From: an uncultured Micavibrio sp. | Lineage (GTDB): Bacteria; Pseudomonadota; Alphaproteobacteria; Micavibrionales; Micavibrionaceae | Direction of reading: 5' to 3' | DNA length: 38,939 nt | Assembly: GCA_963973475.1 (NCBI GenBank) | Contig: CAXBAL010000001.1 | Coordinates: forward strand, 1-38,939 | Shown here: positions 6,554 through 29,196 of the stretch, in pieces | How positions within the stretch are numbered: the first letter of the stretch is position 1 | How the letters are laid out: every line of letters begins with the position of its first letter | Made by a program: the position numbers and the translations under genes | Notes under the pieces: generated by a model | What the model was told of the DNA's origin: nothing | The model's input: the letters and a program-made list of their open reading frames with translations, nothing else | Databases searched by the model: none

Positions 6554-7795
6554 ATGTCACATATCAAAAGACACGCACGACATAGACTTCTAAAGGCATT
6601 AAATGTCAGCCCTGTCGTGTTTTTAAATGGTCCGCGACAGGCTGGCAAGAGCACATTGGTACAATCCATTGCCAAGAAAGATTACCCAGCCGAATATGTG
6701 ACTTTTGATAGTACAACACAAATGGCTGCCGCCGCCAACTCTCCTGAGAGCTATTTGAAAGAGCGTAAAGGTGCCTTAATCATTGATGAAGTTCAGCTTG
6801 TTCCGGAGATTTTCAGAGCCTTAAAGGTTGTCGTGGATGAATTGAGACTGGAACAACCAAAACTCAAAGGGCGTTTTCTACTCACAGGGTCAGCCAATAT
6901 TATGGCCTTGCCGAAATTATCAGATCCTTTGGTTGGTCGCATGAGCGTTTTAACGCTCTATCCGTTGGCCGCTTCAGAAGCCTTGGCCGGCGACGGTAAT
7001 TTTATCGAAAGGCTCTTTAACAAAGAATTTGAGCCAGATTCTGCCAAATATAAACTGGCCGAGGTTATACGCCTAGCGACCTATCCGGAAATTTCAGGTT
7101 CAGAAAAACTTGAGCGCACAACCTGGTTTGATGGTTATCTGACCACTATTTTACAACGAGATGTCCGCGCTCTTGCTGAAATTGAAAAATTAAGCACGCT
7201 GCCTAATTTGCTTCGGATTTTGGCTAATCGCGCCGGCGGTTTGGTGAATGATGCGGATATCGCAAGGGATGCCGGTTTAAATCCTGTGACGTCCCGGAAT
7301 TACAAAACCTTGCTTAAAATGCTGTTCCTGACTTTCGAGCTGGCGCCCTGGTCGCGCAATATTGGAAAACGTCTTGTCAAATCCCCAAAAGGTTATATGA
7401 GCGATACTTTGCTCTTATGCCATCTCATGCAGTATGAGCTGAGCGATCTTGAACAAAACAGACCGGAGCTTTTTGGGCATGTTCTTGAGAACTTTGTTGC
7501 GACCGAACTTCTCAAGCTTATGACATTTCAAAATGAGAAGATGGATTTATACCATTTCAGAACCAGTGATAATAAGGAAGTTGATTTTGTCTTGGAAAAA
7601 TCTAACGGGCAATTAGCTGCAATCGAGGTTAAGCAGCGGGATAGCGTCTCAAAAGCTGATTTTAAAGGTCTGGAAGAGCTTCAGCGTTTAGCAGGTCATG
7701 ATTTCATATGCGGAATAGTCTTGTATCGCGGCCGTGATGTTGTTCCGTTCGGCCAAAATCTATGGGCAGTGCCTGTGAGCAATCTTTGGCTTTAA
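6554..7795 (+). CDS. AAA-family ATPase with DUF4143-type C-terminal domain
   Basis: 413 aa. Walker A: GPRQAGKST. Walker B: ALIIDEVQ. The C-terminal half is typical of AAA_14/DUF4143 proteins (FENFVATEL, EVDFVLE). Confidence 0.8.
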   Translation: MSHIKRHARHRLLKALNVSPVVFLNGPRQAGKSTLVQSIAKKDYPAEYVTFDSTTQMAAAANSPESYLKERKGALIIDEVQLVPEIFRALKVVVDELRLEQPKLKGRFLLTGSANIMALPKLSDPLVGRMSVLTLYPLAASEALAGDGNFIERLFNKEFEPDSAKYKLAEVIRLATYPEISGSEKLERTTWFDGYLTTILQRDVRALAEIEKLSTLPNLLRILANRAGGLVNDADIARDAGLNPVTSRNYKTLLKMLFLTFELAPWSRNIGKRLVKSPKGYMSDTLLLCHLMQYELSDLEQNRPELFGHVLENFVATELLKLMTFQNEKMDLYHFRTSDNKEVDFVLEKSNGQLAAIEVKQRDSVSKADFKGLEELQRLAGHDFICGIVLYRGRDVVPFGQNLWAVPVSNLWL

Positions 7796-7846
7796 ATTAA
7801 CCTAGAAATTAATAAAACGTTTGAAAAAATAACCTGTAAGTTAATT

Positions 7847-8449
7847 TTACGCGGAAAGTTGTCGGGCAATCTCCGCAAGCCACGCGCTTTTAATATATCG
7901 CAGATTCTTGCGTATCTGGCTCTTATCACTGTCTGTTAAATGCCGGGCGCATTTTTGTATATGATCCCTTGTGACGTGCTTTTCCCCTAAATTATGAAGA
8001 GCCTGTAAAGTCACGCTCACGGGAGAATTCCAGTCTAGCAGAGTGTCCGGTATTGGGGATGACACCAGCCTGATTTGCTTATTTTTGACAGGAATTGTTT
8101 TTGGCTTGCCTGTTGTTGTGTAAACCACCTTTCCTGGAACTTGGGTTGTCAGCCCAAGTAGGTTTGCCGCTGTGGCTCCTGACTGTGCAATACGATCTCC
8201 TGTTTTTCTTGCAACGGCCTGTGCGACCCCTTTGACGCTCGGTGCCATGACACCGATATCTGCATCCAGTTTGGGGTAATCATATAGTCCACGCTGAATA
8301 CGGCGAATATCACCGTCCTGAACAAGACGGTATAAAATCACATCCACATTACTGCGTGATGCTAAATCGACAAAATCCTGCGGCGTAAAGACCCATCCAC
8401 GGCCTTTCCGCTTAATTCTGTTCATAATTTTTTGCGCTGTAGATAGCAT
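7847..8449 (-). CDS. AbiEi-like / DUF6088-family protein (antitoxin-like), no AbiEii partner
   Basis: Pattern: FTPQDFVDL...ILYRLVQDGDIRRIQRGLYDYP...SGATAANLLGLTTQVP. The start was chosen at ATG 8449, with AGGTGA 6 nt upstream. The track ORF starts at 8500. Confidence 0.6.
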   Translation of the reverse strand: MLSTAQKIMNRIKRKGRGWVFTPQDFVDLASRSNVDVILYRLVQDGDIRRIQRGLYDYPKLDADIGVMAPSVKGVAQAVARKTGDRIAQSGATAANLLGLTTQVPGKVVYTTTGKPKTIPVKNKQIRLVSSPIPDTLLDWNSPVSVTLQALHNLGEKHVTRDHIQKCARHLTDSDKSQIRKNLRYIKSAWLAEIARQLSA

Positions 8450-8546
8450 TTTTATCACCTCAATATGTAAGATAATAATATATATTAATCTTACATTCAA
8501 TTAGTTAATAATCTATGTATAACAAGGGTTTTGATAGGTTTTAATT

Positions 8547-8743
8547 AGCCCCCTTCGGGCCGATTTAACAAGACCTTCGCTGACGCTCACCTTCGGCTGA
8601 CTTGCCGGTATCCCCACCTTTCCGCGGCTTCGCCTTGTGCAAGGCGGGTGATCCCCCTCCGGCAAGTCCGGATCATGGTTAAATCTCCCCCGCTTTTGTG
8701 CCGCTATGCGGCTCATAGGAAAGAAGTGCAACACGCACTTTTA
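8547..8743. promoter_or_regulatory. conserved nested-hairpin element, copy 1 (candidate ssDNA promoter/priming signal or structured leader)
   Basis: Near-identical to copy 3 over about 140 nt and to copy 2 in the core and tail. Outer helix: 8598-8607/8658-8667. Middle helix: 8612-8619/8640-8647. Apical helix: 8625-8627/8631-8633. It ends 25 nt before the ParB-like ATG. Confidence 0.6.
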
Positions 8744-8768
8744 ACTAAATCAGCGAAAGGAAAAAACT

Positions 8769-10490
8769 ATGACTTACACAAAACTACCAATCACGAAAAT
8801 TCAGGTTTCGGATGCTAACCCTCGCAAAGCCTTCGATGAGGACTCAATTCTGGGCTTGGCTCAATCCATTAAAACGGACGGGTTGCTTCAAAATCTGATA
8901 GTCGGAAAAGCCAAAGGCAAAAAGAAACTACACCCTATTATCTGCGGTGAACGCCGTTTTCGGGCTATAAGCCATTTGGTTGAGAATGGTGATTTTCCCA
9001 AAGATTACGAGGTTACGGTTGAAATTAAAGACGACCTCGATGCCGATACAGCTTTGCGAATTGCCACAATGGAAAATATCCAGAGGCAAGATTTGACACC
9101 ATTGGAAGAAGCTCAAGCCCTTACCAAATTGGTTCAGGATGGCGAAAAACTCGATGATATTGTCGCGCAAACTGGTCTTAGCGCACACACTGTCAGACGC
9201 CGCCTTGTTCTCATGCAGTTAAGTGAGACCGTCAAAGAATGTCTTGAGACAGGTGAAATTACTCTCTCGCAGGCAGAAGCCTTGAGTATTGGGACTTTTG
9301 AGGAACAGGAACGCTGTCTCAACATGGCAAAATCAGGTTATTGGGATGCCGAGGATATCAAAGACCGTATTTTGGGCGATCTTCCGACCCTATCAATGGC
9401 TATTTTTGAGCGTGAGCTTTACACAGGTGACTATACAACCGACCTTTTAGGTGAGGACGATAACACCTATTTCAATGATGCAGAGCAATTCTTTGAACTG
9501 CAAAAGCAAGCGGCAGAAGAACTGGCAGAATCCTATCGTGAGAAGGCCGATTGGGTGGAATTTGTTGAGGGCTATTTCAGTGCTTGGCAGTATGGCCGCG
9601 CCGAAGAAGGTGAGACAGGAGGCGTTATTGTCTCGTTATCGGCAAGCGGTGCTATTGAAGTCCATGAAGGGCTTATCAAAACCAAGGCTGATGAAGATAC
9701 AGCAAATAGCCTTAAAGTGAAGCCTAAAGCCACCTACCCTACTCCGCTACGCCGTTATATGGCCATGCATAAAAGTATCGCGGTTCAATCGGCTTTGATT
9801 GAAAACCCAAGGGTTGCGAAACAGCTTGCTGTCGTAAACAAGCTATATCGCTTCAAAAACCATGATTGTCTGTCCTATTTCGAGCAGGAAGAGACAACCT
9901 CCCCTGCCCTCGCAATTATCAATGAACAGGCAAAGGCTTTATTGGCGCATTTCGGCCATGACTCCGAAGACGCTACATGGCGCGATTTGGGTTATCTTTT
10001 CAACTATGACCTAGAAGATGCCTATAAAGCTGTCAAAGACTTATCGGATGATGTTTTAGAAAGCCTTTTGGTGACACTGGATGCCTTGGAATTCGGGCAA
10101 TTATTCTGTGAACAGCTTGATACCTATGAGGGCAGTATCTTCAATCAGGTTGCTCAGGATTTGCGTGTTGATATGCGGAATTACTGGCGACCAGATGAAG
10201 CCTTTTTGAAACGCCGTAACAAGGTGCAATTACAGCAGATTGTTACCGATGCAGGGTGCTTTCAGAAATTCGGCAATGTTGCAGGATATAAGAAAAAAGA
10301 GCTTGTTACCTCTATGAGCAAGCATTTTCAGCATGTCCTTACTCTTGAAAGCCCGAATGAAGACGAGTTGAAAGCAACGTTCTGGATTCCAGAAGCTATG
10401 GCTTTCCCTGCGATTGACCCTGATGCCAAACAGGATGAGCTGGATACTATCGAAGAAGATAGTGCCGAGAACTTCAAAGAAGCCGCCTAA
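8769..10490 (+). CDS. ParB/Srx N-terminal-domain protein (large ParB-like leading-region protein)
   Basis: 573 aa. ParB N-domain motifs: ITKIQVSDANPRK, LLQNLIV, ICGERRFRA. An HTH follows (LDDIVAQTGLSAHTVRRRL), then a long C-terminal extension. Confidence 0.8.
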   Translation: MTYTKLPITKIQVSDANPRKAFDEDSILGLAQSIKTDGLLQNLIVGKAKGKKKLHPIICGERRFRAISHLVENGDFPKDYEVTVEIKDDLDADTALRIATMENIQRQDLTPLEEAQALTKLVQDGEKLDDIVAQTGLSAHTVRRRLVLMQLSETVKECLETGEITLSQAEALSIGTFEEQERCLNMAKSGYWDAEDIKDRILGDLPTLSMAIFERELYTGDYTTDLLGEDDNTYFNDAEQFFELQKQAAEELAESYREKADWVEFVEGYFSAWQYGRAEEGETGGVIVSLSASGAIEVHEGLIKTKADEDTANSLKVKPKATYPTPLRRYMAMHKSIAVQSALIENPRVAKQLAVVNKLYRFKNHDCLSYFEQEETTSPALAIINEQAKALLAHFGHDSEDATWRDLGYLFNYDLEDAYKAVKDLSDDVLESLLVTLDALEFGQLFCEQLDTYEGSIFNQVAQDLRVDMRNYWRPDEAFLKRRNKVQLQQIVTDAGCFQKFGNVAGYKKKELVTSMSKHFQHVLTLESPNEDELKATFWIPEAMAFPAIDPDAKQDELDTIEEDSAENFKEAA

Positions 10491-11208: not shown

Positions 11209-11224
11209 TCTTGGCTGTATCCGT

Positions 11225-11398
11225 CAAGACCTCCCTTCGGGCCGCTAAAGCGCACAAAAACGGTATCCCCGCCTTTCCGCGTCTTCGACTTGTGCAAGGC
11301 GGGTGATCCCCCTCCGTTTTTGTGGGTCGTGACTGCTCCAGCCGCTTCTTAAGCCGTTTCACGGCACTTCTAGGAAAGAAGTGCAACACACATTTTAA
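11225..11398. promoter_or_regulatory. conserved nested-hairpin element, copy 2
   Basis: Outer helix: 11253-11263/11314-11324 (11 bp, perfect). Middle helix: 11268-11275/11296-11303. Apical helix: 11281-11283/11287-11289. It ends 12 nt before the ardC ATG. Confidence 0.6.
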
Positions 11399-11410: not shown

Positions 11411-12283
11411 ATGAAACGCACCGATATTTACCAATCCGTTACTGACACAATCATTGAAGCCTTGGAGCAAGGTTTATCAGGTGACTTTGAATTGCCTTGG
11501 CATGGTTGTGGAGGTGTTCCCCAGAACGCCCGCACAGGAAACTATTATCACGGTATCAATGTGCCTTTGCTATGGGCGCACCAGATGAAAAGCGCCTATT
11601 CAAGCGGAACATGGGCAACTTATAAACAATGGCAGGATATGGGCGCACAGGTAAAAAAGGGCGAGAAAGGCCGCCAGATTGTTTTTTGGAAATCCATAGA
11701 AGTCGAGCCAACCGAAGACAATGAACAGCGCGAGCAAATTATGTTTGCCAAATATTCAACTGTCTTTAATGCCGATCAGGTTGATGGATATACCCTGCCC
11801 CAAGATGATTTTGAGCCGAATGATATACAGGCTATTTCTGCGGCAGACCAGCTCATTGACGCTTCAGGCGCAGATATTCGCTTTGATGAGCGCCGCGCAT
11901 ATTACAGCGTCATGGATGATTATATCAATCTACCAAGCCCTGAATTTTTCAGACATACCTGCGGCTCTACAGCTACGCAGAATTACTACAGCACTGCATT
12001 TCACGAGCTTGTTCACTGGACAGGCGCGGAAAAACGCCTGAACCGTGAGCAGAAGCATAGATTTGCTTCAAAAGACTATGCTTTCGAGGAATTGGTCGCA
12101 GAACTTGGCGCCGCCATGCTTTGTGCATCTACAGGCGTAGAGTCAAGCCCCAGAGAAGACCACGCCATTTATATACAAAACTGGCTGAAAGCCTTGAAGG
12201 ACGACAAGAAGTTTATCTTTTCGGCCAGCTCACAGGCACAAAAAGCCGCTGATTATCTCTTTTCTTTCACCAATCAAGATTAA
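11411..12283 (+). CDS. ardC: antirestriction protein ArdC (ssDNA-binding N-domain plus HExxH metalloprotease domain)
   Basis: 290 aa. ArdC N-domain pattern: WHG...PQNARTGNYYHGINVPLLW...WATYKQW. The C-domain has FHELVHWTG and AFEELVAELGAAML. Confidence 0.9.
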   Translation: MKRTDIYQSVTDTIIEALEQGLSGDFELPWHGCGGVPQNARTGNYYHGINVPLLWAHQMKSAYSSGTWATYKQWQDMGAQVKKGEKGRQIVFWKSIEVEPTEDNEQREQIMFAKYSTVFNADQVDGYTLPQDDFEPNDIQAISAADQLIDASGADIRFDERRAYYSVMDDYINLPSPEFFRHTCGSTATQNYYSTAFHELVHWTGAEKRLNREQKHRFASKDYAFEELVAELGAAMLCASTGVESSPREDHAIYIQNWLKALKDDKKFIFSASSQAQKAADYLFSFTNQD

Positions 12284-13978: not shown

Positions 13979-14004
13979 TTTAATCATTTATGAAAGGGAC
14001 TATC

Positions 14005-14310
14005 ATGGCAAAACCAAGTTTAAAGAATCTTCCGAATGTCGGCACGGAAAACCGTAACGCGGACGAGCTGAAAAAGCGCTTATCAGAAGGGGCAAAGGAT
14101 TATCCAAGCCTGAAAGTGGAAAAAAAGAAGGATGCGACCAAGAAGCGCAAGAAATCCTCTTTATCCATGCCGGAATATGTTTGGGATCTTCTATGGGATG
14201 CGACCAAAGAGAGTAGGGAACCCCAAGGTGTTATCGTAATGCGCGGTTTAAAAGCTTTGGGCTTTGAAATTGATGAAGCCGATCTGGTAGATGCCCGTAA
14301 GACCCGCTAG
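14005..14310 (+). CDS. small basic protein with C-terminal RHH-like fold (ParG-like centromere-binding candidate)
   Basis: It lies immediately after parA. It has a lysine-rich linker and then SLSMPEYVWDLLWDATKESREPQGVIVMRGLKALG. The ATG at 14005 is preceded by GAAAGGGA. Confidence 0.55.
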   Translation: MAKPSLKNLPNVGTENRNADELKKRLSEGAKDYPSLKVEKKKDATKKRKKSSLSMPEYVWDLLWDATKESREPQGVIVMRGLKALGFEIDEADLVDARKTR

Positions 14311-14508
14311 GGTCAGGGCGTTCCCTTGTGCTTTGACAAGCCCAAGGTCAGGCTCTATTCACTAACCAGCCCCAAGCGGCCGAGGCCACTTCGGGCTGCT
14401 AAGTTCACCGAACCTCGGTTGCCCGAGTTTCGGCCCATACGGGTAACGATCCCTAACGCGATCATGGCAAGGCCATTCCTGATAGGAATGGTCATTTGTA
14501 TTTAAAGA

Positions 14509-14700
14509 GGCCGCTTCGGCCCGATTATCAAGACCTTCGCTGACGCTCACCTTCGGCTGCCTTGCCGGTATCCCCACCTTTCCGCGTCTTCGACTTGTGC
14601 AAGGTGGGTGATCCCCCTCCAGCAAGGCCGGGTCATGACAATCTCCTCCCGCTTCAAGCGACAGATTCCTGTCGCCTCGAAAAAAGTATGTTTCGAGGCG
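14509..14700. promoter_or_regulatory. conserved nested-hairpin element, copy 3
   Basis: Outer helix: 14559-14568/14619-14628. Middle helix: 14573-14580/14601-14608. Apical helix: 14586-14588/14592-14594. Two small hairpins follow at 14658-14675 and 14673-14700. It ends 26 nt before the DUF6876 ATG. Confidence 0.6.
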
Positions 14701-14726
14701 CAATTTAAAAGGAAAAGGAGTTCGCT

Positions 14727-15128
14727 ATGACAGACCAACAAACACAATCACTTAACGGCAACCAACGCAACAAGCTGCGCGAGCAGGATTTAGCCAATTT
14801 TTACGGCACAGAAGTCTGGTACAGACACCCCGCTTTTAGAACCTATCTTTATACTGAAGGCGTGCAATATGTTGCAGAACATGGTGAAGCCTATTGGCTT
14901 TTGGATAAAATTTTTGCCTGTCATGCCAGTGTCCCAAAATTATCAGGTGAGGATTTTTGTAGTTGGGAGCTGAATAAGAATGCAGAAGGGCATGGCGCCA
15001 GGCTTATTTGCACAGATGGCAATTATAACGAGCTGTATTCTGAGAGCATTCTCTACACTGATTTTCCGCTTACCAGCATCAAGTTCTATTGTGTGAATAA
15101 TGTCTTGTTGCTCCCCACAGAATATTAA
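14727..15128 (+). CDS. DUF6876-like leading-region protein
   Basis: Pattern: FYGTEVWYRHPAF...YTEGVQYVAEHGEAYWLLDKI...YTDFPL...LLLPTEY. A GGAG Shine-Dalgarno is present. Confidence 0.65.
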   Translation: MTDQQTQSLNGNQRNKLREQDLANFYGTEVWYRHPAFRTYLYTEGVQYVAEHGEAYWLLDKIFACHASVPKLSGEDFCSWELNKNAEGHGARLICTDGNYNELYSESILYTDFPLTSIKFYCVNNVLLLPTEY

Positions 15129-16084: not shown

Positions 16085-16133
16085 TACAATTATTGTATTA
16101 TTTATGCTTTAAAACTGTTTTATGGAGGTAAAA

Positions 16134-16394
16134 ATGCCCAATATTGATTTAGGTGATCCGTATGAATCTTACGTCAAAGGTTTAATTGGATCAGGATTAT
16201 ACAGCACTTATGCCGAAGTGGTTAAGGATGCTTTACGCCTTCACATGAATAATGAAACACCTTCAAAACAAATGGCTTTTATTCATAGCGCTATTTTGGA
16301 AGGAGAAGCCGATATTCAAGCCGGTCGCACGAAAAAATATTCGCCCAAGATGCTGGATAGTATGACAGAGGACGTTTTAAAAGAAGATGTCTGA
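16134..16394 (+). CDS. parD: ParD-family type II antitoxin
   Basis: Sequence: NIDLGDPYESYVKGLIGSGLYSTYAEVVKDALRLH. The ATG at 16134 is preceded by GGAGG. It overlaps the toxin gene by 8 nt. Confidence 0.75.
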   Translation: MPNIDLGDPYESYVKGLIGSGLYSTYAEVVKDALRLHMNNETPSKQMAFIHSAILEGEADIQAGRTKKYSPKMLDSMTEDVLKEDV

Positions 16395-16695
16395 AAACTA
16401 CCAAATTCAATTTTCCGCGCGCGCAGAAAAAGATTTCAAATCTATTCAGCGATACACGCTCAAGACCTATGGTGAAAAGCAGGTCTGGATTTATACAGGG
16501 ATGCTGAAAGAAGCTTTACGAAAACTCGAAGAAAACCCGAAATTATATGGTCATATGCGCCCTGATATTCCACAGATCTATCGCGCTTACAAAATTGGCG
16601 AACACAGCCTGATTTATCGTATCGAAGACCGAACTGTTTATTTAATTGCTATATTACATGGTAGCATGGATTTTACCTCTCAACTCAAAACCTAG
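16387..16695 (+). CDS. parE: ParE/RelE-family type II toxin
   Basis: 102 aa. It is a typical ParE (A..D...I..Y ... YR.Y..G.H.I.YRIED..V.I..ILH) and is translationally coupled to parD. Confidence 0.75.
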   Translation: MSENYQIQFSARAEKDFKSIQRYTLKTYGEKQVWIYTGMLKEALRKLEENPKLYGHMRPDIPQIYRAYKIGEHSLIYRIEDRTVYLIAILHGSMDFTSQLKT

Positions 16696-16810
16696 ATTTA
16701 CAGTGTTGCAATAATGCTGACGATTTCCTTTTTTTGGAAATTATCGACCAAACAGCCTTATGCCTTTCAAGATTGGGCAATTTAACTGACCTGCCTTCGC
16801 CTATGCTTCA

Positions 16811-16868
16811 AGAATAAATTTCCCCTTTTCGCGTTCGCTCAAATTCCTCGCGGGAGCAAATTTATTCT
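16811..16868. repeat. 11-bp perfect inverted repeat AGAATAAATTT / AAATTTATTCT with 36-nt GC-rich spacer
   Basis: The arms are at 16811-16821 and 16858-16868. The palindromes GACGCGTC and GCCGGC follow. It sits in the intergenic region between parE and the DUF736 gene. Confidence 0.35.
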
Positions 16869-16959
16869 GTGACGCGTCGAAGCCGGCCAGTGAATTTTAT
16901 GCCATCGTAAAAGGGCAATATGGTGTTGCTTTGGTGATAATCAAGAAAAGGAAAATACA

Positions 16960-17375: not shown

Positions 17376-17404
17376 GATAGGGCATGTAGAGAGCGGATAG
17401 GGCA
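17376..17404 (+). promoter_or_regulatory. direct repeats GATAGGGCA x2, 20 bp apart (candidate accessory-protein binding sites near oriT)
   Basis: The copies are at 17376-17384 and 17396-17404, in the AT-rich region upstream of the relaxase gene. Confidence 0.3.
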
Positions 17405-17583: not shown

Positions 17584-19656
17584 ATGAGAAAAGAAGAATT
17601 GATGTTTTTAGATCGGATCAGGGCTGAGAATTTTACGGGGAGCGATGGCGTTTCCCGGCCATTGATCGTGACCAGAGATAGCCCCAGAAAAGCGTTCTTT
17701 AAAAAGCTCAATCGTCATGGTGAGGTAAAGTCAGGACCGAAAAAAATCAAACGCAGATCGGGACTGATGCGCGGCAATTCATTTGCAGGTTTGGCATCGG
17801 CGCAGCGCGTTGTTGTGAAAATCAATCCGGTGAAGAACAAGACTAAGGGGGTTGGATCGGGCGCAAATTCCGGCGGCCAAAATCTCTATCATCACATCCA
17901 TTACATTAGCCGAAACAGGGCAGGTGAGGATGCTGAAAAAGCCATCCTGTTTGATGCTAAAAACGAGGGATTGGAGCGTCAAGATTTTTTCGAGTTATGC
18001 AAAAATGATCGTCACCATTTTCGGATGATCATCTCGCCGGAGCGGGGCAATGAGATCGAAGATTTTAGAGGCTATGTTCGGGAAGTGATGAAGCGTGCCC
18101 AAGGGGATCTCAAGACCAAACTCTCATGGGTGGCGGCTGTTCATTATGATACTGATGATGTTCATGCGCATGTGATCATTCGGGGCAAAGATGCGCGCGG
18201 TGAGGATCTGGTGATGGCTCGCGATTATATCGCATTTGGCATTCGCGCAAGAGCGCAAGAGATTGCAACCGAGTTATTGGGCGAGCGCTCAATCGAAGAC
18301 ATTCAAAAAGGATTGGAGAAGGAAGTGGACGCGCTGCGGGTCACTTCTTTAGACCGCTTTATTGAAAAGCAGGTTGGCGAAGATCAGGTGGTCGATGTCC
18401 GCAAAGACAATAATTTCGGTAAATCGGCGCATTATGAGTCTGTCCTGAAAGGGCGGTTGCGCTATCTGGCCTCAAGCGGCATGGCGGTCGAGAACCCTCC
18501 GGGGGTCTATACACTGAAAGAAGGGTATAGAGATGTCCTGGCCAGTATTGCCACGCGCAATGATGTGATTAAAAAGCTTTATGAGCGCGTAGAGGGCTTG
18601 GATGATCTTGAAGTCTATTCTCTAAAAGCCGGAGAGGGGCAGGTTATTGAAGGGCGCGTTTTGGATAAAGGGCCAGCCGATGAGCTTACAGACAAGAAAT
18701 ACATTGTTGTTGAAGCTCTCTCTGGCGGAAAGCATTACGTTCCAGTTGGAGAAGCCTTTAATTATGATGAGGTGAATAAGCGCGGCCTCGTGCGTGTTCG
18801 CCCATTCGATCATTCAACCGGTAAGGCCGATCACAATATCGCGCTGATAGCAGCCCAGAATGAGGGTATTTACGATATTGAGAAGCACCGCGCCTATATC
18901 GCTAAGGAACAGTCTTACATCGATGAGGACGTTCGAGAGCCTTACTTACAATCCCATATCAAACGGATTGAGACGCTTGTGCAAAATGAAGCGGCTACAG
19001 AATTAGGGCAGGGGCGTTATCAAATCCCTGATGATGTGATCGAAAAGGGCAAAGAGATCTCTGCCAAAATCAATGCGCGTGAGAAAAAGCGGTTCTATCC
19101 AAAGCTTGATATTCTTTCATCCCATGCACCGGAAGATATGGTGGATGCGAAAAAGAAGACCTGGCTGGATAAAGAGCTTTATAAGAGAAGCAAGGGAGAT
19201 CGCAGTATCACCGATCAATCTTTAGAAGCTGCGCTTCAAAAACGTCAGCAATGGCTTGTCGATAACAAACTGGCAATGATCCAGTCTAATGGTGAGTTTG
19301 CCATGAAGAAATCAGCAATGCGCGATCTCAGCGTCATGGAAGTTCATGAAGAGGGTAAATTCCTGGCCACAAAAGCCGGTCTTACCTTTAACGATCATAA
19401 AGTCTCATCCGATCAGGCTTATACTTATCTTGGTTATACCGAACTTGAAACAGGAAAATGGGCGGTTGCGATGCGCGGGAAAGAGCTGCAAATGGCGCGG
19501 ATTGATAAAGCCCCCGATCTTGAAAAAGGACAAAAGGTTCAATTTAATGAAATCGAGCGCGGACTATTCGAAATGCGCGCCGCCGAACAACAAAAACAGC
19601 AAGACAGGCAGCAATCATCACGCGGGCGTGATGATGATAATGAAATGGAGCTATAA
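17584..19656 (+). CDS. conjugative relaxase (VirD2/MobP-like nuclease domain with DUF3363-type C-terminal region)
   Basis: 690 aa. It has RVVVKINPV, HHIHYISRNRAGED, DRHHFRMIISPE and the histidine triad HYDTDDVHAHVII. An alternative start lies at ATG 17602 (MFLDRIR). Confidence 0.85.
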   Translation: MRKEELMFLDRIRAENFTGSDGVSRPLIVTRDSPRKAFFKKLNRHGEVKSGPKKIKRRSGLMRGNSFAGLASAQRVVVKINPVKNKTKGVGSGANSGGQNLYHHIHYISRNRAGEDAEKAILFDAKNEGLERQDFFELCKNDRHHFRMIISPERGNEIEDFRGYVREVMKRAQGDLKTKLSWVAAVHYDTDDVHAHVIIRGKDARGEDLVMARDYIAFGIRARAQEIATELLGERSIEDIQKGLEKEVDALRVTSLDRFIEKQVGEDQVVDVRKDNNFGKSAHYESVLKGRLRYLASSGMAVENPPGVYTLKEGYRDVLASIATRNDVIKKLYERVEGLDDLEVYSLKAGEGQVIEGRVLDKGPADELTDKKYIVVEALSGGKHYVPVGEAFNYDEVNKRGLVRVRPFDHSTGKADHNIALIAAQNEGIYDIEKHRAYIAKEQSYIDEDVREPYLQSHIKRIETLVQNEAATELGQGRYQIPDDVIEKGKEISAKINAREKKRFYPKLDILSSHAPEDMVDAKKKTWLDKELYKRSKGDRSITDQSLEAALQKRQQWLVDNKLAMIQSNGEFAMKKSAMRDLSVMEVHEEGKFLATKAGLTFNDHKVSSDQAYTYLGYTELETGKWAVAMRGKELQMARIDKAPDLEKGQKVQFNEIERGLFEMRAAEQQKQQDRQQSSRGRDDDNEMEL

Positions 19657-20458: not shown

Positions 20459-20487
20459 TTGATATTTCTTTTAAATGATACTATAAT
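20459..20487 (+). promoter_or_regulatory. sigma70-like promoter TTGATA-17 nt-TATAAT upstream of hipB
   Basis: The hexamers are at 20459-20464 and 20482-20487. A TATC/GATA-rich sequence (TATCAATATATATCGATA) follows and may be the operator. Confidence 0.45.
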
Positions 20488-20506
20488 ATCAATATATATC
20501 GATAAA

Positions 20507-20833
20507 ATGAGAACTGCGGATATAATGGTATCACTTATAACACCAGCAAAAGCGCAAAAAAAGCTCGCAGAGCAAGCGCGGGCACGGCGCCTGCAAATGG
20601 AATTAACGCAGGAAGGTCTGGCGGAGCGCTCAGGTGTTGCATTGCCGACCCTTCGCAAGTTTGAACGCACGGGCGCTCTATCCCTGGAATCATTTCTTAA
20701 GCTTCACATGGTGCTTGGCGGATTGGAAGATATCCTTAAAGCTACGCAAATTAAAGAAGAGAGCTATTCTTCCATCGATGATGTATTGAAGTCAGATAAC
20801 GTACCTATCCGCAAGAGAGGGACACGCAAATGA
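20507..20833 (+). CDS. hipB: HipB-like XRE-family HTH antitoxin
   Basis: Sequence: LTQEGLAERSGVALPTLRKFERTG. It overlaps hipA by 4 nt (ATGA). The start could be ATG 20507 or ATG 20525. Confidence 0.75.
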   Translation: MRTADIMVSLITPAKAQKKLAEQARARRLQMELTQEGLAERSGVALPTLRKFERTGALSLESFLKLHMVLGGLEDILKATQIKEESYSSIDDVLKSDNVPIRKRGTRK

Positions 20834-22074
20834 AGAACTATCTCTCTGCAACAGAAGTAAGGGTCGGCATTAATTTTGGCGAAGGTGTTCAAACTGTAGG
20901 CAGATTAGCTGTACGGGAGCACAAGATTTATTTTGAATATGATAGCGCCTTTATAAAAAGCGGCATAGAGATATCACCGCTACGCTTGCCTTTACTATCA
21001 GGTGTTCAAAGTTTTGATCATGACCTTTTTGAAGGCTTGCCCGGTGTATTTAACGACAGCTTGCCTGATGGTTGGGGACGGTTATTGTTTGATCGTTTTA
21101 TAAGATCACAGGGAATATTGCCCTCAGATATAACACCGCTTGATCGCTTGGCGCATGTGGGGTCACATGCTCTTGGCGCACTTGTGTTTGAACCTGATCA
21201 CAGCGCAGATGATACACAAGGCGATATAAACCTTGATAACCTTGCCTCGCAAGCGCAAGAGGTTTTGGACGGAACGTCGGATGACGTATTGGCGGAACTC
21301 ATAGCCTTAAACGGATCTTCAGCGGGAGCAAGGCCAAAAGCACTAATCGGTGTAAACGAGAAAAGGGATCATATCATTCATGGTCTACATGATTTACCCG
21401 CAGGTTATGCACCATGGATGGTTAAATTCCCGAATAGTCAAGATGGGCTAGATGCCGGTGCAATCGAATTTGTATATGCATTGATGGCAAAAGAGGCTGG
21501 CATTACCATGCCTGATGTCCATCTTTTTCAAGCAGAGCGCGGCGCAGGTTATTTTGCGATTAAGCGCTTTGATCGTGATGGTGACAAACGATACCACATG
21601 CACACGGCTTGCGGATTGTTGCATTCAGATTTCCGCACACCTTCATTGGATTACGAAGATTTAATTGCGCTCACTGGTATGCTGACTCGCGATGTGCGTG
21701 AGGTGGAAAAGCTATATCAGCTGGCCGTGTTTAACGTGTTAGCTCATAATCGCGATGATCATTCCAAAAATTTCAGTTATTTGATGGATAGCCAAGGGGG
21801 ATGGAAACTTTCCCCTGCCTATGACCTCACATTCTCATCTGGCCCACGCGGCGAACAAAGCATGATGGTTATGGGTGAAGGTAAAAACCCTGATACAAGC
21901 CATCTGTTAAAGCTGGCAGATGAAGCGAAAATCAAAAAAGACCGTGCGCTTGAGATTATTGAGAGCACAAAATCTAGCCTGTCCAAATGGCCAGAGCTTG
22001 CAAAGCAATATGGCGTTAGTGATATGAACATTAAGCTGATACAAAGCAGAATATCGCAGGTGGCCGGAGAATAA
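20830..22074 (+). CDS. hipA: HipA-family serine/threonine kinase toxin
   Basis: 414 aa. N-domain: DSLPDGWGRLL. Kinase core: SSAGARPKA, FAIKRFDR, HNRDDHSKNFSYLM, LSPAYDL. Confidence 0.9.
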   Translation: MKNYLSATEVRVGINFGEGVQTVGRLAVREHKIYFEYDSAFIKSGIEISPLRLPLLSGVQSFDHDLFEGLPGVFNDSLPDGWGRLLFDRFIRSQGILPSDITPLDRLAHVGSHALGALVFEPDHSADDTQGDINLDNLASQAQEVLDGTSDDVLAELIALNGSSAGARPKALIGVNEKRDHIIHGLHDLPAGYAPWMVKFPNSQDGLDAGAIEFVYALMAKEAGITMPDVHLFQAERGAGYFAIKRFDRDGDKRYHMHTACGLLHSDFRTPSLDYEDLIALTGMLTRDVREVEKLYQLAVFNVLAHNRDDHSKNFSYLMDSQGGWKLSPAYDLTFSSGPRGEQSMMVMGEGKNPDTSHLLKLADEAKIKKDRALEIIESTKSSLSKWPELAKQYGVSDMNIKLIQSRISQVAGE

Positions 22075-28188: not shown

Positions 28189-29196
28189 CTAAAATCCTCT
28201 GATATTTTTGGCAGCTGTCGTCACGCGCGCGCCCATAGCTTTTCCTGTTTGAACGGGATGGCGGGCAATGTTGTAGCCCATTACGCCGGCCCGGAATGAG
28301 CCTTTGGGCGTTCCTTTGCCAAAGCGCGATGCTAATCGTGATGTCCATGCTGCCGATCCCATTGTTGATAGGGATAGACCGCCCGTGACCGATGCCGCCA
28401 TGTTCATAACCTGCATGAGCAGAAGAACCGAGACGATTGAGACAAAGAAGAACGGGCCGATATAAGAAAGGGTCTGTGCATCTCCACTTGAATTATTTTC
28501 AAGATTTTGAAGAGGTGGCTCTGCAATCGTTAAGAGCAAGGCGAGCAGGGCATAGACGAATATTGGTATGATGGCATAATTGAGTAGTGTGCGCAGCCAG
28601 CCTTCAAACAAATTGCGCGTATTGGCAAAAATCAAAAGCAATATAAAGAGCGGTCCGATTGAAAGCAGAATAGCGACAGCAATCTTAGCCAAGATAATCA
28701 GCATGGCGGCATAGCCGGTGAGTGCCAAAGCCCCAAACCAGATCACTGCGGCATGGAAGTATTTCCCTAAATCCGACCAGCCAGCCCCTTCCAAAATATC
28801 GCTGACAATATCCATAGCCCTGTCATAAAACTGGGAGAGGATGGTGTTTGCGGATGTATCGTCAGTTGCGACCGCATTCGGTGTTGCATTAGCCGCGCCT
28901 GTCATGATTTGGCCGGCCACATCGGACGGCAGATCAGTCGCCATATTATAAACAAGAAGGAAGAACGTATCCCACTCGGTTGCGATTAAGAGGAGAACGA
29001 TAATCTTTAATGTATTTACGATTAAATCCGTTGCAGCAAAACGGCCGGAAATAATGACTTTATAGCCAAAAACAGCAATAAAGATGATGAACATCAATCG
29101 CCAGAGAAGCTGAACAGTCGGCGTTAGGCTTCCAAACGCACCTTGGACGAATGCGAGAATGACACTATCAATATTGTTGATGAGAGCCTCGATCAT
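28189..29196 (-). CDS. virB6: T4SS inner-membrane protein VirB6/TrbL
   Basis: Polytopic membrane protein in the VirB6 position. I prefer the ATG at 29196, which gives an ATGA overlap with the upstream lipoprotein gene. The track ORF starts at 29214. Confidence 0.8.
   Translation of the reverse strand: MIEALINNIDSVILAFVQGAFGSLTPTVQLLWRLMFIIFIAVFGYKVIISGRFAATDLIVNTLKIIVLLLIATEWDTFFLLVYNMATDLPSDVAGQIMTGAANATPNAVATDDTSANTILSQFYDRAMDIVSDILEGAGWSDLGKYFHAAVIWFGALALTGYAAMLIILAKIAVAILLSIGPLFILLLIFANTRNLFEGWLRTLLNYAIIPIFVYALLALLLTIAEPPLQNLENNSSGDAQTLSYIGPFFFVSIVSVLLLMQVMNMAASVTGGLSLSTMGSAAWTSRLASRFGKGTPKGSFRAGVMGYNIARHPVQTGKAMGARVTTAAKNIRGF

Follow-up and report, generated by a model that had tools for sequence, protein, structure and literature searches.

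Organization of the locus

The window, by which we mean the whole 38,939-nt stretch of DNA that was analysed, carries three copies of a 56-nt core, identified by repeat search and starting at positions 8606, 11261 and 14566. Copy 1 precedes a ParB-like gene that is followed by an N6-methylase gene, copy 2 lies upstream of ardC (ATG at 11411; Pfam: ArdC), and copy 3 is found upstream of a DUF6876 gene (ATG at 14727) and a Toprim/DUF3991 gene, both assigned by Pfam. Past the copy-3 genes follow ParDE, DUF736 and relaxase genes and then, on the other strand, a VirD4/VirB-type transfer system. The stretches 6554-8500, 16122-16695 and 20459-22074 of the window are dense in genes of the toxin-antitoxin or abortive-infection type (AAA/DUF4143, DUF6088/AbiEi-like, ParDE, and HTH plus HipA). 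The features of the three copies and of their surroundings are listed below.

8548-8560, minus strand: copy 1, H0, a short G+C-rich hairpin present in the DNA and RNA folds of both strands, 3' end of the element on the folding (minus) strand
8552, 8574 and 8590: copy 1, starts of the CCTTCG words (sequence)
8562-8575, minus strand: copy 1, would-be non-template arm of the basal stem S1 (sequence); plus GATTTAACAAGACC, minus GGTCTTGTTAAATC, with the -35-like CTTG/TTGTTA
8576-8598, minus strand: copy 1, variable insert Hx between S1 and the outer helix, restricted to the side of the S1 non-template arm (sequence)
8599-8608 with 8659-8668, minus strand: copy 1, outer helix GACTTGCCGG/CCGGCAAGTC (sequence, covariance-model match, covariation)
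8599-8668, minus strand: copy 1, outer helix and the near-invariant core that it encloses; minus reads GGAGGGGGATCACCCGCCTT...AAGGTGGGGATACC; AGGGGGA forms a 7-nt bulge, and the apical hairpin is variable
8613-8620 with 8641-8648: copy 1, middle helix CCCACCTT/AAGGCGGG (sequence)
8626-8628 (GGC) with 8632-8634 (GCC): copy 1, apical helix GGC-TTC-GCC (sequence)
8670-8685, minus strand: copy 1, S1 template arm (sequence); plus reads GGATCATGGTTAAATC, TTG being lost on that side
8687-8768, plus strand: copy 1, downstream part (sequence, Pfam, spacing statistics)
8687-8693, plus strand: copy 1, C-tract box CCCCCGC (sequence)
8700-8712 and 8724-8740, plus strand: copy 1, 3' hairpins (sequence)
8716-8734, plus strand: copy 1, tail TAGGAAAGAAGTGCAACAC, common to copy 2 (sequence)
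about 8757-8760, plus strand: copy 1, Shine-Dalgarno sequence of the ParB-like gene, which starts at 8769 (sequence)
11221-11335, minus strand: copy 2 (covariance-model match), with S1 arms at 11221-11231 (minus GGTCTTGACGG) and about 11325-11335 (plus GGTCGTGACTG)
11253-11263 with 11314-11324, minus strand: copy 2, outer helix, enclosing the core
14471-14493, plus strand: terminator-like hairpin with T-run (motif scan), just upstream of copy 3, between the ORF at 13990-14310 and copy 3
14509-14643, minus strand: copy 3 (covariance-model match, minus-strand DNA fold), with H0 at 14509-14521
14523-14535 (minus GGTCTTGATAATC) and 14631-14643 (plus GGTCATGACAATC): copy 3, S1 arms
14559-14568 with 14619-14628, minus strand: copy 3, outer helix, enclosing the core
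16795-16880, minus strand: long hairpin without core, possible fourth module (minus-strand DNA fold of -28.7 kcal/mol, z = -4.35)
17376-17384 and 17396-17404: two direct repeats GATAGGGCA, overlapping or flanking the nick-like motif
17409-17400, minus strand: candidate oriT nick site TATACTG/CCC (TATACTGCCC; slash, nick), by motif position upstream of the relaxase gene
17584-19656: relaxase gene

All three copies share a nested hairpin, as the sequence-only reading of positions 8547-8743 had proposed. The features that it listed are all present in the sequence, with several coordinates displaced by 1-2 nt. Thus, the A.C mismatch described for the plus strand of the copy 1 middle helix exists and corresponds to a G.T wobble on the minus strand, but is located at 8616/8645 rather than 8615/8644. 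The apical helix reads GTC-TTC-GAC in copies 2 and 3, and the compensatory change claimed at this position is a true double change (G-C to T-A) relative to copy 1. Hx of copy 1 is the counterpart of a small side hairpin seen in the minus-strand folds of copies 2 and 3, and its length varies widely across the family described below. A degenerate 23-nt pattern of the core matched exactly three times in the window, with no match expected from 100 shuffles, and a covariance model recovered the copies at 8595-8672 (89.8 bits), 11250-11327 (88.4 bits) and 14555-14632 (86.8 bits) with E values of about 1e-16.

Read along the plus strand, the complete module begins with H0 and a CAAG(A/G)CC arm, to which a side hairpin may be added; next come the outer-helix 5' arm, GGTN-TCCCCRCCYTTCC, the variable apical hairpin, GTGCARGGYGGG-YGA-TCCCCCT and the outer-helix 3' arm, and then the arm pairing with the CAAG arm, the C-tract, a hairpin that often has a TCGCC loop, another hairpin, the Shine-Dalgarno sequence and the ATG. 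The sequence of H0 differs between lineages; a hairpin equivalent to it, again with different sequences, is located 4-22 nt beyond CTTG in 50 distinct family members.

The hairpin at 16795-16880 contains CTTGAA on its minus arm and CTGTGAC on its plus arm, and ends about 90 nt before the ATG of the DUF736 gene (16960). DUF736 genes carry the full element in five other loci. This hairpin may be a core-less relative of the module, in which case the basal stem would be its essential part.

Extent and hosts of the family

The 56-nt core was found only in the sensitive mode of blastn, whereas a megablast search of plasmids gave no match. The sensitive search located it at 71 places in 39 plasmids, mostly alphaproteobacterial and often with several copies per plasmid. 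An exact-pattern scan of species-representative genomes returned 93 loci, of which about 75 hold genuine elements, and the covariance model, built from 65 distinct sequences, identified 112 copies in 83 loci. Beyond those of the window, plasmids and ICE-like contigs of Alphaproteobacteria yielded about 110 copies, with hosts among the Sphingomonadales, Hyphomicrobiales, Rhodobacterales, Caulobacterales and Acetobacterales as well as Micavibrio MAGs, the Micavibrio contigs among the matches being near-identical to the window. The element accompanies MOBP, MOBF and MOBQ systems. In Rfam, the whole window had no match at the gathering score, and the element itself had none at E values up to 10. 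In the literature, the core sequence is unreported and no single-stranded promoters have been described in Alphaproteobacteria.

Genuine elements were also detected on MAG contigs labelled Nitrospina, Dormibacterota, Akkermansiaceae, Acidobacteriota and Bordetella and in two Thiothrix plasmids (loci L007, L015, L027, L034, L043 and L050/L080); either the host range is wider, or plasmid contigs were mis-binned. The module, about 250 nt in all, can be almost identical before unrelated genes of a single plasmid (L001 5800-6070, 8800-9060 and 13350-13610; L096 8260-8510), a pattern that points to copying or gene conversion and offers a substrate on which leading-region operons could recombine.

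Conservation of the fold

In an alignment of 65 distinct homologues, 96.6% of the cells in the outer and the conserved inner helix pair, and double changes occur in 10 of the 11 outer-helix pairs. The covariation score reached 0.523, compared with 0.145 in shuffles (none of 500 attained the observed value) and 0.07-0.12 when the partners were slid. Given this pairing, the double changes and the covariation above shuffles, the fold is real. The claim of a structured repeat thereby extends from the three window copies, with model scores of 87-90 bits, to the family; covariation was not lost in the larger alignment, and the Rfam search uncovered no known RNA family. The core of about 50 nt between the helices, which includes the 7-nt bulge (AGGGGGA on the minus strand), is near-invariant. 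Minus-strand DNA folds of the copies have z scores of -2.4 to -5.1 (copy 2, -5.1), and the helices also form in the plus-strand RNA of copy 1 (z = -3.5).

A protein-coding gene on the minus strand was rejected as a source of this conservation. The distance between the invariant blocks is 43, 45, 47, 49, 50, 51, 53, 55 or 57-59 nt; it thus varies, and not by multiples of three, so the ORF that spans the element on the minus strand cannot be coding and is an artefact, in line with the sequence-only reading. No reading frame is conserved, and the variation in block distance is compensatory in the helices.

Downstream genes and gene order

In most of the 94 cases considered, the core is followed at 94-110 nt by the start of an ORF that has a ribosome-binding site and the same orientation. 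The 79 distinct downstream ORFs include ArdC (19), ParB_N (ParB-like; 11), DUF3768 (9), DUF6876 (7), DUF736 (5) and ArdA (2), plus methylases; for the small downstream ORFs, Pfam returned no families. In all of the approximately 24 loci with two or more copies, the copies are co-oriented.

The gene order of the window is the same in Sphingobium pDE2, Tardibacter pHSL1 and Brucella anthropi pOANT02. In these three plasmids, the window and a Roseibium plasmid, the elements are on the strand of the relaxase gene; in all but the Roseibium plasmid, where they are found downstream of the relaxase, the elements and their genes point to the relaxase operon from its upstream side. In pHSL1 (L097 2385-5737), the ArdC gene downstream of one element is apparently split by a reverse transcriptase/maturase gene, probably through insertion of a group II intron. 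The pDE2 lineage (also L012/L070, L038/L049 and L016) carries an extra full copy in opposite orientation just beyond the relaxase operon, which in pDE2 is located at 28351-28428 of the plasmid record (L096 8352-8429) and precedes an 87-aa ORF without Pfam family.

The strand that folds

The types of mismatch in the helices point to folding on the minus strand. Among the 65 aligned sequences, the central pair of the conserved helix, at which copy 1 has its wobble, is, when read on the minus strand, GC in 35, GU in 25, AU in 4 and AC in 1, so the plus strand would carry A.C in 25 of them. Similarly, A.C on the plus strand, equivalent to G.T on the minus strand, occurs 18 times in the outer helix, compared with four instances of G.T on the plus strand. 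In the sphingomonad subfamily, a wobble test was applied to the presumed 5' UTR hairpins, a region that is too conserved to be informative.

The basal stem is asymmetric as well. Of 70 elements, 64 have CTTG on the 3' arm of the minus strand (CAAG in the 5' flank on the plus strand), whereas only 18 have it in the same sense on the partner arm, where a mismatch or a bulge of 1-4 nt is usually placed exactly at TT.

Free energies were rejected as evidence for the folding strand. For copy 1, the minus strand does fold to lower energies than the plus strand (-41.3 versus -39.6 kcal/mol with DNA and -85.7 versus -78.0 kcal/mol with RNA parameters), and the same holds for 65 of 70 elements, but shuffles show an equal or larger bias (-3.7 versus -3.1 kcal/mol) a consequence of the abundance of C and T on the plus strand. 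From -85 to +30 around the core, the plus strand contains on average 48 G, 64 C, 18 A and 35 T, the folding strand thus being purine-rich, and such a skew produces a spurious asymmetry in free energy. Of the earlier claim that pairing is better on the minus strand, the argument from mismatch types therefore stands and applies across the family, whereas the energetic advantage is explained by base composition.

Candidate oriT and putative transferred strand

The MOBP nick consensus is YATCCTG/Y (slash, nick). In three lineages, the minus strand carries a nick-like motif ahead of the relaxase operon; in pDE2 and pOANT02 the motif is TATCCTGCCAT, which has the same place and strand relative to the relaxase operon as the motif of the window. 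A scan of all fetched loci gave 12 matches to the nick motif, with no strand preference and at about the number expected by chance, so that the motif by itself is not significant; the matches used were those directly upstream of relaxase operons.

A nick on the minus strand would make this strand the transferred one, with its 5' end near 17402, and copies 3, 2 and 1 would then lie 2.8, 6.1 and 8.8 kb into the first DNA to enter the recipient. This putative T-strand assignment draws on the geometry of the genes and on a short motif that carries weight only through its position upstream of relaxase operons. By the same geometry and weak motif, the elements would be located in the leading region, with the transferred strand as the template of the downstream genes.

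Promoter-like features and proposed mechanism

The alphaproteobacterial -35 consensus is CTTGAC. The conserved minus arm of the basal stem contains the -35-like sequence CTTG(A/C), and we consider it slightly better than an even bet that the element serves leading-region genes as a single-stranded-DNA promoter or initiation site, situated on the transferred strand (T-strand, here minus). A -10-like hexamer was not found at a distance of 16-19 nt on either arm, and nothing consistent appeared after H0 or in the plus-strand 3' flank, so that a defining feature of the known single-stranded promoters was not seen in the element; the position where a -10 box would lie is taken by the C-tract and the hairpin with the TCGCC loop. 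Motifs for sigma-32 (CTTGAA...CCCCAT), sigma-54 (GG-N10-GC) and EcfG (GGAAC...CGTT) were compared by eye and rejected, as their spacing or conservation did not fit. Around copy 3, the scan that identified the terminator-like hairpin found no double-strand promoter of the sigma-70 type in 14300-14760. The hairpin at 14471-14493 would insulate the copy-3 module from upstream transcription.

In the proposed mechanism, the strand that folds is the minus strand, which serves the downstream genes as template and is probably the one transferred; it would fold after its entry into the recipient. S1 would rebuild a duplex -35-like box (CTTGAC, CTTGCG or CTTGAT), the readable strand of which would be supplied by the far arm of the hairpin. 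In the duplex form, the position of the box reads ATGGTT, GTGACT and ATGACA in the three window copies, which makes a poorer -35 box. Since the strand at this position mostly lacks TTG in the double-stranded plasmid, the promoter would be on in the single strand and off once the complement has been made. In some lineages both arms read CTTGAC, so this on/off asymmetry would not be universal. Host RNA polymerase would start on the unpaired template just beyond the stem, and the ParB-like/methylase, ArdC and DUF6876/Toprim genes would be transcribed before the DNA becomes double-stranded. The transcript may also prime complementary-strand synthesis, as that of Frpo does, and the stable G+C-rich hairpins could prime or stall this synthesis in the manner of Frpo/ssp.

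At about -50 to -80, the core would occupy the place of an upstream activating element. It is conceivable, if rather unlikely, that the invariant bulged core is a module of single-stranded DNA recognised by some conserved protein of Alphaproteobacteria (for instance RNA polymerase or sigma, a primase or a further factor that binds single-stranded DNA) and that this module recruits the machinery to the incoming DNA. Such a module would let the family do without a -10 box.

Neither the opposite-oriented copy of the pDE2 lineage nor the position of the Roseibium copies downstream of the relaxase is accounted for by the transferred-strand model, and the same holds for the missing -10 box and the invariant core. 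If the core is a recognition module, the pDE2 copy beyond the relaxase operon could report the single-strandedness of the strand retained in the donor.

Comparison with known single-stranded elements

The Frpo, ssi and ssp elements, grouped into classes 1-3, are single-stranded-DNA promoters of IncF and IncI1 plasmids (Masai & Arai 1997; PMC12672017; PMC11541004). They drive the same kinds of genes from single-stranded DNA (PMC11541004, PMC12672017, 10.64898/2026.01.09.698686), are on in the single strand and off in the double strand (PMC11541004, PMC12672017), and in addition prime complementary-strand synthesis, which they can also stall (10.64898/2026.01.09.698686). In one study, promoters of the IncF/IncI type worked poorly in Sinorhizobium (PMC12672017). 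The element is like Frpo/ssp in the presence of several leading-region copies upstream of anti-restriction, methylase, ParB-like or SSB-type genes pointing to oriT, a layout that the F leading region shares with the window, and in having G+C-rich hairpins on the (here putative) transferred strand, a -35-like box rebuilt in a stem and mismatches that weaken the double-stranded form. It differs from them in its hosts, which are Alphaproteobacteria rather than enterobacteria, and in its build: Frpo/ssp form one long hairpin that holds both -35 and -10, whereas in the element no -10 box was found, and the basal -35-like stem is combined with a helix that covaries, the invariant bulged core and two hairpins, one at the side and one terminal. 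When the F leading region was compared with the element, the best blastn E value was 0.16 and the best covariance-model score 15 bits. Homology to Frpo/ssi is defined by a BLAST E value below 1e-6 (PMC11541004), and with E = 0.16 the element was rejected as a class 1 homologue. Judged from its sequence, the element would thus resemble Frpo/ssp in context, strand and logic without being their homologue, and apparently without the -10 box that is one defining feature of the class.

Likenesses to other single-stranded signals were also considered. The sso of rolling-circle plasmids (ssoA/ssoU) are strand-specific, folded single-stranded DNA with conserved sequence blocks at which host RNA polymerase starts RNA, and the element is like them in being strand-specific and folded, with conserved blocks; by contrast, sso serve to make short primers and are uncoupled from ORFs, whereas the element has a conjugative context and neither RSB nor CS-6 motifs. 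The G4-type signals and ssiA/ssiB of RSF1010 are hairpins recognised by primases in single-stranded DNA, a parallel to the Toprim-domain gene near the element, but they have no fixed relation to start codons, and the element occurs with many transfer systems; we know of no sequence similarity between them and the element. Integron attC sites likewise function as folded single strands, with the choice of strand set by unpaired bases. The element differs from attC in that integrase and cassette array are missing, the core is unlike the R and L boxes of attC, and the element is always tied to gene starts.

Alternative explanations

The same structural and strand evidence fits a single-stranded structure that forms on the transferred strand and serves mainly for something other than mRNA synthesis. 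It could be a priming site recognised by host primase, RNA polymerase or a plasmid Toprim primase, a roadblock that delays conversion to the double strand, or a loading site for a protein that travels with the incoming strand or meets it. The invariant core with its bulge looks more like a specific protein-recognition site than part of a promoter, the hairpins are stable and have a very high G+C content, copy 3 is followed by a Toprim/DUF3991 gene, and in F both a roadblock (ssp2) and priming transcripts (Frpo) are known (10.64898/2026.01.09.698686). A pure priming site or roadblock would, however, not need a fixed distance of 94-110 nt to the start codons of particular gene families, and the occurrence with MOBP, MOBF and MOBQ makes a plasmid-specific partner unlikely; we regard this explanation as unlikely. 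That fixed spacing, together with the shared sense of element and gene, would suit a plus-strand RNA leader acting as a cis-regulatory 5' UTR of anti-restriction genes, for example one whose C-rich bulge UCCCCCUCC, which resembles an anti-Shine-Dalgarno sequence, masks the ribosome-binding site until a signal arrives. The helices do form in plus-strand RNA, but the central helix would have A.C in 25 of 65 sequences and G.U in only one, the conserved CTTG word is on the other strand, a terminator-like hairpin directly precedes copy 3 with no promoter upstream of the 5' arm, and Rfam holds no match even at E values up to 10. Such a leader is accordingly improbable.

The preference for minus-strand pairing might instead indicate a minus-strand antisense RNA, and the inverted repeats could be an operator or cruciform bound in double-stranded form by a leading-region regulator. 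No promoter for a minus-strand RNA was seen, however, and H0 is followed by an A-rich rather than a T-rich run and hence forms no terminator, whereas helices that keep pairing while their sequence changes freely fit a folded single strand and not a duplex operator; we hold both variants to be very improbable. A mobile or recombining repeat of the miniature inverted-repeat type, without function of its own, would account for the flanking inverted arms and for copies that are near-identical over about 250 nt within a plasmid. It is scarcely credible for an element that always lies upstream of, and co-oriented with, a small set of gene families, whose core is conserved across several alphaproteobacterial orders while its helices covary, and around which no target duplications were seen.

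Implications

Thanks to single-stranded-DNA promoters, plasmids can express anti-defence genes within minutes of entering a cell; such promoters are so far known only from enterobacterial IncF and IncI plasmids. If the element is a promoter or initiation site of this kind, it would represent a separate and widely conserved alphaproteobacterial class on plasmids and ICEs of sphingomonads, rhizobia, Brucella/Ochrobactrum, Rhodobacterales and Micavibrio, and the strategy would be general, having evolved more than once. The covariance model would then mark leading regions and the polarity of transfer in these plasmids, and DUF3768, DUF6876, DUF736 and the small ORFs of unknown function downstream of the element would become candidate anti-defence genes. 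It would also provide a defined 50-nt motif of single-stranded DNA whose binding partner can be sought.
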